A stretch of 64,000 nt of DNA from Candidatus Heimdallarchaeum endolithica (lineage in GTDB: Archaea; Asgardarchaeota; Heimdallarchaeia; Heimdallarchaeales; Heimdallarchaeaceae). Each line of letters begins with the position of its first letter. The stretch's first letter is position 1. Below are positions 43,620-44,085 of the stretch, in pieces. The stretch is from NCBI GenBank assembly GCA_021513715.1, contig CP084167.1:992001-1056000 (forward strand), given 5' to 3'. Both the position numbers and the translations under genes were made by a program. The notes below the pieces were generated by a model, which was given only the letters and a program-made list of their open reading frames with translations, did no database searches and had not been told where the DNA came from.

Positions 43620-43786
43620 TTTTATACACAGTTTTAAAATACTACTTTAAAAATACTATAGTCCTATAAATATTATTTTTTAAAATTACTTAAAATTAAT
43701 TTTTTAAAAAAATAAATTTAATCACTGAAAGAAAACATTTTTCTGGCAATCTCCACCTTTCACTATTTAAAATTCCTTTTTTAAAG

Positions 43787-44040
43787 TATCTTCCAATCCC
43801 GGAGGATAGCCAAATTAGAATTAGTGCTTGTTTCACTGCGCCTAGCTGTTAGAATCCTTTTTTCACTAGTTAAGACACCTCTAACCTTTCTTCTGACTTA
43901 TGTTAAAGTGGAGGTGAAAAAAGGATGCTCGCTCCGGATCTTCCTGACGATCCCGATCCATTTCCTCCTTGAATAAGGAGGTTTAAGGAGCTTCTAAATG
44001 GAGCTCCTTGATTTCCTACAGACGGGTCGGAAATCCCTTA
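43787..44040 (+). ncRNA. Candidate structured non-coding RNA (family not recognised)
   Basis: GC-enriched island with at least 6 hairpins whose imperfections are G-U on the plus strand; TATTTAAA at 43764; T-rich tract after 44040. Confidence 0.65.
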
Positions 44041-44085
44041 TTTATTTTTCTTTCCTTCTTTTTATCTTTTTCCCTTTTTGCTTTA

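Follow-up and report, generated by a model that had tools for sequence, protein, structure and literature searches.

An island between two cas operons

The window analysed here is a 64,000-nucleotide stretch of the genome of Ca. Heimdallarchaeum endolithica (contig CP084167.1, positions 992,001 to 1,056,000). PMC8813620 reports this genome, a single contig of 3.33 Mb, together with a second one, both circular. The only same-genus relative we found is Ca. Heimdallarchaeum aukensis PM71.

Within the window, the element studied here lies between two cas operons, type I-B on the minus strand and type III-A on the plus, and is flanked by the divergent gene U486 and by a convergent TM1812/Csx1-like gene (Table 1). 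An earlier note on this DNA had described the element as a GC-enriched island carrying an unrecognised RNA gene. The enrichment is confirmed: the GC content of the element is 43% vs 31% for the genome, which places it in the top 0.65% of 254-nt genome windows. TATTTAAA is located at 43764.

Table 1. Positions of the features discussed in the text, numbered from the first nucleotide of the window
Feature	Position	Strand	Remarks
Type I-B operon	35663-42047	-	cas8b-like, cas7, cas5, cas3
U486	42159-43619	-	486 aa; N-terminal region and C-terminal winged helix; heads type I-B operon
Site A, probable DNA operator	43787-43808	.	inverted repeat in divergent promoter region; recurs in homologues
Possible SD-occluding stem	43854-43926	+	13 bp (alternative 8 bp); 11/13 pairs in L029, 8/13 in L031
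Site B	43872-43894	.	degenerate second half-site pair; 3' half (43886-43894) repeats the half-site of site A in direct orientation
Shine-Dalgarno (SD) GGAGGTGA	43910-43917	+	read directly; near-invariant among homologues
Mini-ORF, MLAPDLPDDPDPFPP	43925-43972	+	15 codons by translation; acidic and proline-rich, ending Phe-Pro-Pro-stop
Structured 3' RNA domain	43978-44039	+	three-way junction; z −4.5 here
closing stem	43978-81/44036-39	+	part of 3' domain
hairpin	43985-44009	+	part of 3' domain
hairpin	44010-44035	+	part of 3' domain
T-rich tract, probable archaeal terminator	44040-44085	+	T tracts trail the 3' domain in homologues
TM1812/Csx1-like gene	44086-45414		convergent with the element
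Type III-A operon	45609-52580	+
Tandem (double) Lrp/AsnC-fold regulator	52781-54265	+	two HTH matches; heads DUF2797-cas1-cas2-cas4

The note had found no match to known RNA families, and we can uphold this: no Rfam covariance model matched the element at the gathering score, which speaks against the Rfam ncRNA families (tRNA, SRP, RNase P, ribozymes, riboswitches), and the best result of a looser search was a chance match (E 0.16). Neither BLASTN nor nhmmer found a further copy in the genome, and this single copy argues against the multicopy MITE or IS end that the note had weighed. The exact 3' motif was absent from viral and metagenome contigs, as was the peptide pattern described below from viral contigs. 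With a single copy and no viral matches, nothing supports the suggestion of an orphan scaffold RNA from a mobile element. BLASTN of the element against 41 relatives returned T-rich noise only, except for two weak matches to the SD region, which led to true homologues.

A 15-codon ORF under selection

The island had been thought to be free of ORFs, which is incorrect. Two syntenic loci, reached via U486, align along the element, and the alignment exposed a perfect SD followed by a 15-codon ORF, smaller than the size most ORF callers list. Across 15 pairs of copies, nucleotide changes at codon positions 1, 2 and 3 number 17, 20 and 75, and codon differences divide into 56 synonymous vs 28 non-synonymous; these pairs are not independent, yet the third-position pattern is seen in every clade. 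Between the window and its nearest orthologue (L029), all five codon differences are synonymous and none is non-synonymous. A P-[DN]-[DE]-P core is invariant in 21 Heimdall copies while third codon positions within it vary. Beyond the prolines, the conserved peptide residues include Asp and aromatics, and C-terminal extensions are tolerated. The start, frame and stop of the mini-ORF are conserved and substitutions are biased to synonymous sites, the pattern by which a small protein-coding gene is recognised. Judged by these sequence comparisons, the element is a stand-alone selected micro-gene encoding a peptide, with its ORF under selection as peptide.

Genome-wide (3.3 Mb), no other SD-led short ORF has a proline-rich tail. 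A pattern combining the SD with the peptide core gave eight matches in 7 of 400 Asgard genomes, all belonging to the window's family, and none with the reversed control. Matches to the pattern in high-GC bacteria were set aside as chance, having no in-frame SD-led ORF of this kind. A second ORF at 43998-44102 was dropped, its frame being lost in the homologue L031. We also rejected a hammerhead reading of CTGACGA...GGAAA: these bases are Pro-Asp-Asp codons and vary synonymously.

RNA structure is confined to the 3' end

The plus strand folds at z −3.2 (0 of 100 shuffles equal), compared with z −1.5 on the minus strand; a separate calculation for the whole element on the plus strand gave z −4.2. 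All eight stems listed in the earlier note are present exactly at the coordinates given there and four of them do have one G-U pair on the plus strand. The description as structured RNA survives for the 3' 77 nt (z −4.5), but not for the 5' part (z −1.1) or the ORF (z −0.8). Among homologues, the 3' region has z −2.8 to −6.4 in 16 of 21. In a 10-sequence alignment of the three-way junction, two-sided changes are seen at 11 of 25 consensus pairs, although these reflect few independent events because the alignable copies come from two clades; one compensatory pair change separates the window from L031. Our junction call rests on z, this alignment and the L031 compensation, as the automatic three-way-junction finder was too permissive (shuffles pass) and MAFFT alignments spanning distant clades lost the 3' structure. 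By these measures, real RNA structure is restricted to the 3' 77 nt, where the fold is conserved.

The stems that use bases of the ORF break in L031: GGATC/GATCC keeps 3 of 5 pairs, CCTCCTT/AAGGAGG 4 of 7 and CCGATCC/GGGTCGG 5 of 7. The last of these had been proposed as a switch or pseudoknot and is not conserved. Another possible stem could occlude the SD (Table 1); across 21 homologues, SD occlusion showed no excess over shuffles. The 3' domain is absent from three copies in genomes G002/G006, so we regard it as accessory, most simply a stabiliser; the folded 3' end probably stabilises a short mRNA.

Candidate operator sites upstream of the micro-gene

The first hairpin of the element (43787/43801), previously taken for an RNA stem, looks instead like a DNA operator. 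It shows no strand bias, with 9 G-U vs 11 A-C. In most of 23 homologues an inverted repeat of lineage-specific sequence lies ~135-145 nt before the start codon, and the best direct copy of the site A half-site is found 100-101 bp downstream in 14 of the 23 loci, a fixed spacing that fits protein-DNA geometry. We infer that the site A hairpin behaves like a DNA operator, in which case the length of the transcript may be closer to 150 nt than to 250 nt.

The micro-gene travels with two regulator genes

By searching upstream of relatives of the partner genes we collected homologues at 34 distinct loci of Heimdallarchaeaceae and Thorarchaeia, two Asgard classes; most come from a few related clades, so the counts below overstate independence. 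The Thorarchaeia copies include MNWPGDPSPVPPWTF. At nearly all loci the mini-ORF lies 120-240 nt upstream of, and divergent from, an Lrp or U486 gene. The usual arrangement is a peptide gene divergent from an Lrp-U486 operon, with Lrp adjoining the mini-ORF in most loci. In the window lineage the cassette is split: the peptide gene faces U486, and the Lrp gene, displaced 8.8 kb from the mini-ORF, precedes DUF2797-cas1. The earlier note had asked whether homologues stay linked to cas genes or to the 42159-43619 gene. They stay with the family of the latter and with Lrp, whereas 16 loci are CRISPR-linked (several type I-B kinds and I-D), 15 are cas-free in the sense that no cas gene occurs in the DNA available around the locus, and 3 are too short to tell. 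CRISPR-linked loci often have U486 directly before the cas effector genes. Among five genomes with cas-free cassettes, four showed no Cas7 of three families (completeness 84-92%).

Taken across these neighbourhoods, micro-gene, tandem Lrp and U486 travel together, and the constant partners of the micro-gene are these two proteins, not cas. The mini-ORF is very probably a translated micro-gene belonging to this cassette. The best reading of the gene orders is that cas operons repeatedly captured a peptide-plus-regulator cassette. 

The association also has variants. Locus L112 has the peptide and Lrp genes and no adjoining U486, and some Lrp paralogues occur without a peptide gene; at L170:329-5078 three tandem double-Lrp paralogues adjoin neither a peptide gene nor U486. 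H. aukensis (L053 / L171) has a full cassette ahead of a I-B operon; its second Lrp orthologue, which is the closer one (65% identity), has no peptide gene and lies beside a cas3 fragment. On a Hodarchaeales contig, Lrp-like and U486-like genes are mutually divergent with no clear peptide gene between them (L176:4986-8512). In G002/G006, CRISPR arrays are inserted between the Lrp and peptide genes (L051:4675-6148 and L087), and the neighbouring arrays differ in repeat variant. Directly after one cas-free cassette (L080:6064-7911) lies an OLD-family ATPase-TOPRIM defence gene, which hints at links to other defences.

U486 had no family match in Pfam, NCBIfam or PADLOC, including neither a CARF nor a WYL match. 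Its predicted structure (pLDDT 84) resembles wHTH domains at residues 361-486 (Z about 8). The N-terminal region is mixed alpha/beta in the whole-protein model, within which fold searches gave no clear match. We found 46 relatives in a 50% library, and across unrelated cas subtypes U486 sits immediately ahead of cas8b, cas10d or cas7-like genes. The predicted fold of the Lrp regulator resembles the fused Lrp-like NirDL (E 7e-9) and Lrp/AsnC proteins, and its Atlas neighbours are archaeal AsnC-type proteins. A profile search for it in one other family of the same class gave no match. Lrp effector domains usually bind amino acids.

A peptide proposed to act through the regulators

Literature searches found no paper on the cassette. 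We take it for an undescribed control module with a possible role in cas control. It resembles known small-ORF modules, both CreT and peptide-regulator pairs, yet differs from each of them in a defining feature. In RRNPP pairs (Rgg/SHP, AimR/AimP), too, a very small peptide gene and the gene of a large transcription regulator diverge, but the receptor has a TPR domain. The regulator here models as a tandem Lrp/AsnC fold, not TPR repeats, the peptide is acidic and proline-rich without an export signal, and the cassette has a second, wHTH protein. The dedicated cas regulators of the Csa3 and WYL types are wHTH proteins whose genes, like that of U486, come first in type I cas operons; unlike them, U486 is without a CARF or WYL match and its unit includes a peptide gene.

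The explanation we favour, while holding it tentatively, is that the peptide works through the Lrp and U486 regulators. The third member of the cassette, beside the tandem-Lrp regulator and the U486 wHTH protein, would be a short mRNA on which a strong ribosome-binding site precedes an acidic, proline-rich ORF of 13-24 codons and the 3' end is folded. The two proteins would recognise the palindromes of the divergent promoter region, and the peptide would stay in the cytoplasm and act on one of the two as a short linear ligand or as an antagonist. Being tiny and difficult to translate, the peptide would reach a level that mirrors the state of translation; it would thereby tune the regulators and hence the cas operon headed by U486. 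The conserved acidic and aromatic residues, and the extensions tolerated past the prolines, are better explained by a binding motif than by a simple stall signal. Since half of the loci are cas-free, the cassette must also have a role other than cas control, and a peptide without an export signal is no classic pheromone.

It is tempting to extend this model, as a possibility that we hold with considerable doubt: the tandem-Lrp/wHTH pair of Asgard archaea would take a cytoplasmic 13-24-residue proline-rich peptide ligand, I-B and I-D operons would repeatedly have captured the cassette, and micropeptide-switched immunity would be a new form of cas control. If so, cas immunity would respond to a micropeptide sensitive to translation, in place of cyclic oligoadenylate, WYL sensors or crRNA-like guides, and a peptide ligand would be a new input to cas regulation. 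Little is known about CRISPR-Cas control in Asgard archaea. The analysis yields a family of micro-genes (34 loci) that is unannotated and under strong selection, together with two partner proteins and candidate operator sites, and the cassette is open to direct testing with synthetic peptide and the two purified proteins.

Other explanations

A CreT-like addiction toxin is somewhat unlikely, yet it is the alternative that fares best. The strong SD would load ribosomes, the terminal prolines would stall them, and Lrp/U486, rather than Cascade-CreA, would repress the gene, such that loss of the cassette or cas locus would poison the cell. The CreT of Pseudomonas aeruginosa type I-F CreTA1/2 combines a strong SD, a 15-nt ORF ending Pro-Pro-stop and a 3' hairpin (bioRxiv 10.64898/2026.06.02.729485), and the element shares this anatomy, including the stabilising hairpin and a position between the genes of a type I cas locus. 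Patchy occurrence and varied neighbourhoods also fit an addiction module. The Pro-Pro-stop end, however, is found in 15 of 34 copies, the window's included, and is lacking in 19, of which 7 end in one Pro and 12 run past the prolines. In addition, the ORF has 13-24 codons with a conserved peptide motif, whereas a 5-codon CreT has no need of the conserved residues before the prolines. The constant partners here are two proteins; the cassette is often cas-free and four of the five carrier genomes mentioned above, at 84-92% completeness, show no Cas7 of the three families.

Haloarchaeal CreTA (PMC8501985) is likewise archaeal, in type I-B context, with SD, mini-ORF and stem-loop, and the element has this combination, by which CreTA is recognised, in a cas intergenic region; Cascade is also present in the window genome. 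Unlike haloarchaeal CreTA, the element has no consecutive rare codons and its proline codons vary freely. A CreA consists of degenerate repeat(s) and a spacer with seed complementarity (positions 1-5 and 7-11) to the toxin promoter (PMC8501985), and no such repeat-derived antitoxin was found. CRISPR-repeat similarity within 43620-44090 is below shuffles (p 0.98) and none of the 255 spacers in the genome matches 43620-43925 by its seed (0.7 such matches expected), searches that a very degenerate CreA could escape. A candidate CreA-like antisense unit at 43716-43821 was rejected (p 0.3-0.7 vs shuffles; not conserved in L029). The analogy to CreTA drawn in the earlier note thus pointed to the closest published system, while the guide it implies did not turn up. 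Were the peptide a toxin, proline-codon CreT toxins would reach archaea, with a protein repressor replacing the RNA antitoxin.

Less probable is a cis-acting translation sensor (a leader peptide or uORF), in which pausing at Pro/Asp, via aIF5A or proline supply, would govern termination or folding and so control the downstream gene. Polyproline motifs do stall ribosomes and EF-P/aIF5A relieves the stalling (PMC12856214), and cas6 lies downstream in the same direction in L053, L099 and L139. The downstream genes are unrelated between loci, and in the window and seven others (L029, L031, L051, L052, L087, L094, L095) the next gene is convergent, leaving nothing downstream for a leader to control.

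It is improbable, by a similar measure, that activity resides in the three-way junction at the 3' end of the RNA, which might for instance bind U486 or Lrp or act as their decoy, and that the ORF is secondary. The 3' domain is 100% identical between the window and L029, compared with 69% for the upstream 75 nt, and its fold is conserved with compensatory changes; yet three copies keep the peptide without the domain, the Thorarchaeia tails differ in sequence, and the ORF is conserved more widely than any other part.

The ~250-nt non-coding CRISPR accessory RNA of the earlier note fits the plus-strand folding of the whole element and the empty Rfam search, but is largely refuted by the clear coding signature of the mini-ORF, the breaking of ORF-based stems in L031, folding of the 5' part at shuffle level and the cas-free setting of half of the homologues. 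What stands of that proposal is an independent conserved plus-strand unit between the I-B and III-A operons, divergent from a wHTH gene and with real RNA structure.

Other features of the cas locus

Just upstream of the Csx1-like gene, the minus strand at 45463-45487 resembles the 3' half of the CRISPR repeat (p 0.01, one of 33 tests). This repeat-like handle is kept in L029 and not in L031; it has no target in 43620-43925, and the adjoining spacer/seed sequence is not conserved. Two unknown minus-strand genes (33507-34766 and 32760-33347) close the cas locus on its far side. The one of 419 aa had no Pfam or NCBIfam family match and is syntenic in L029-L031. The cas8b-like and cas11-like genes are separate ORFs at 40074-42047, as they are in L029, L031 and L051. 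In the stretch headed by the tandem-Lrp gene (52781-57390) DUF2797 precedes cas1; it does so also in L051, L101 and L168, and is thus a recurrent cas1 partner in these archaea.
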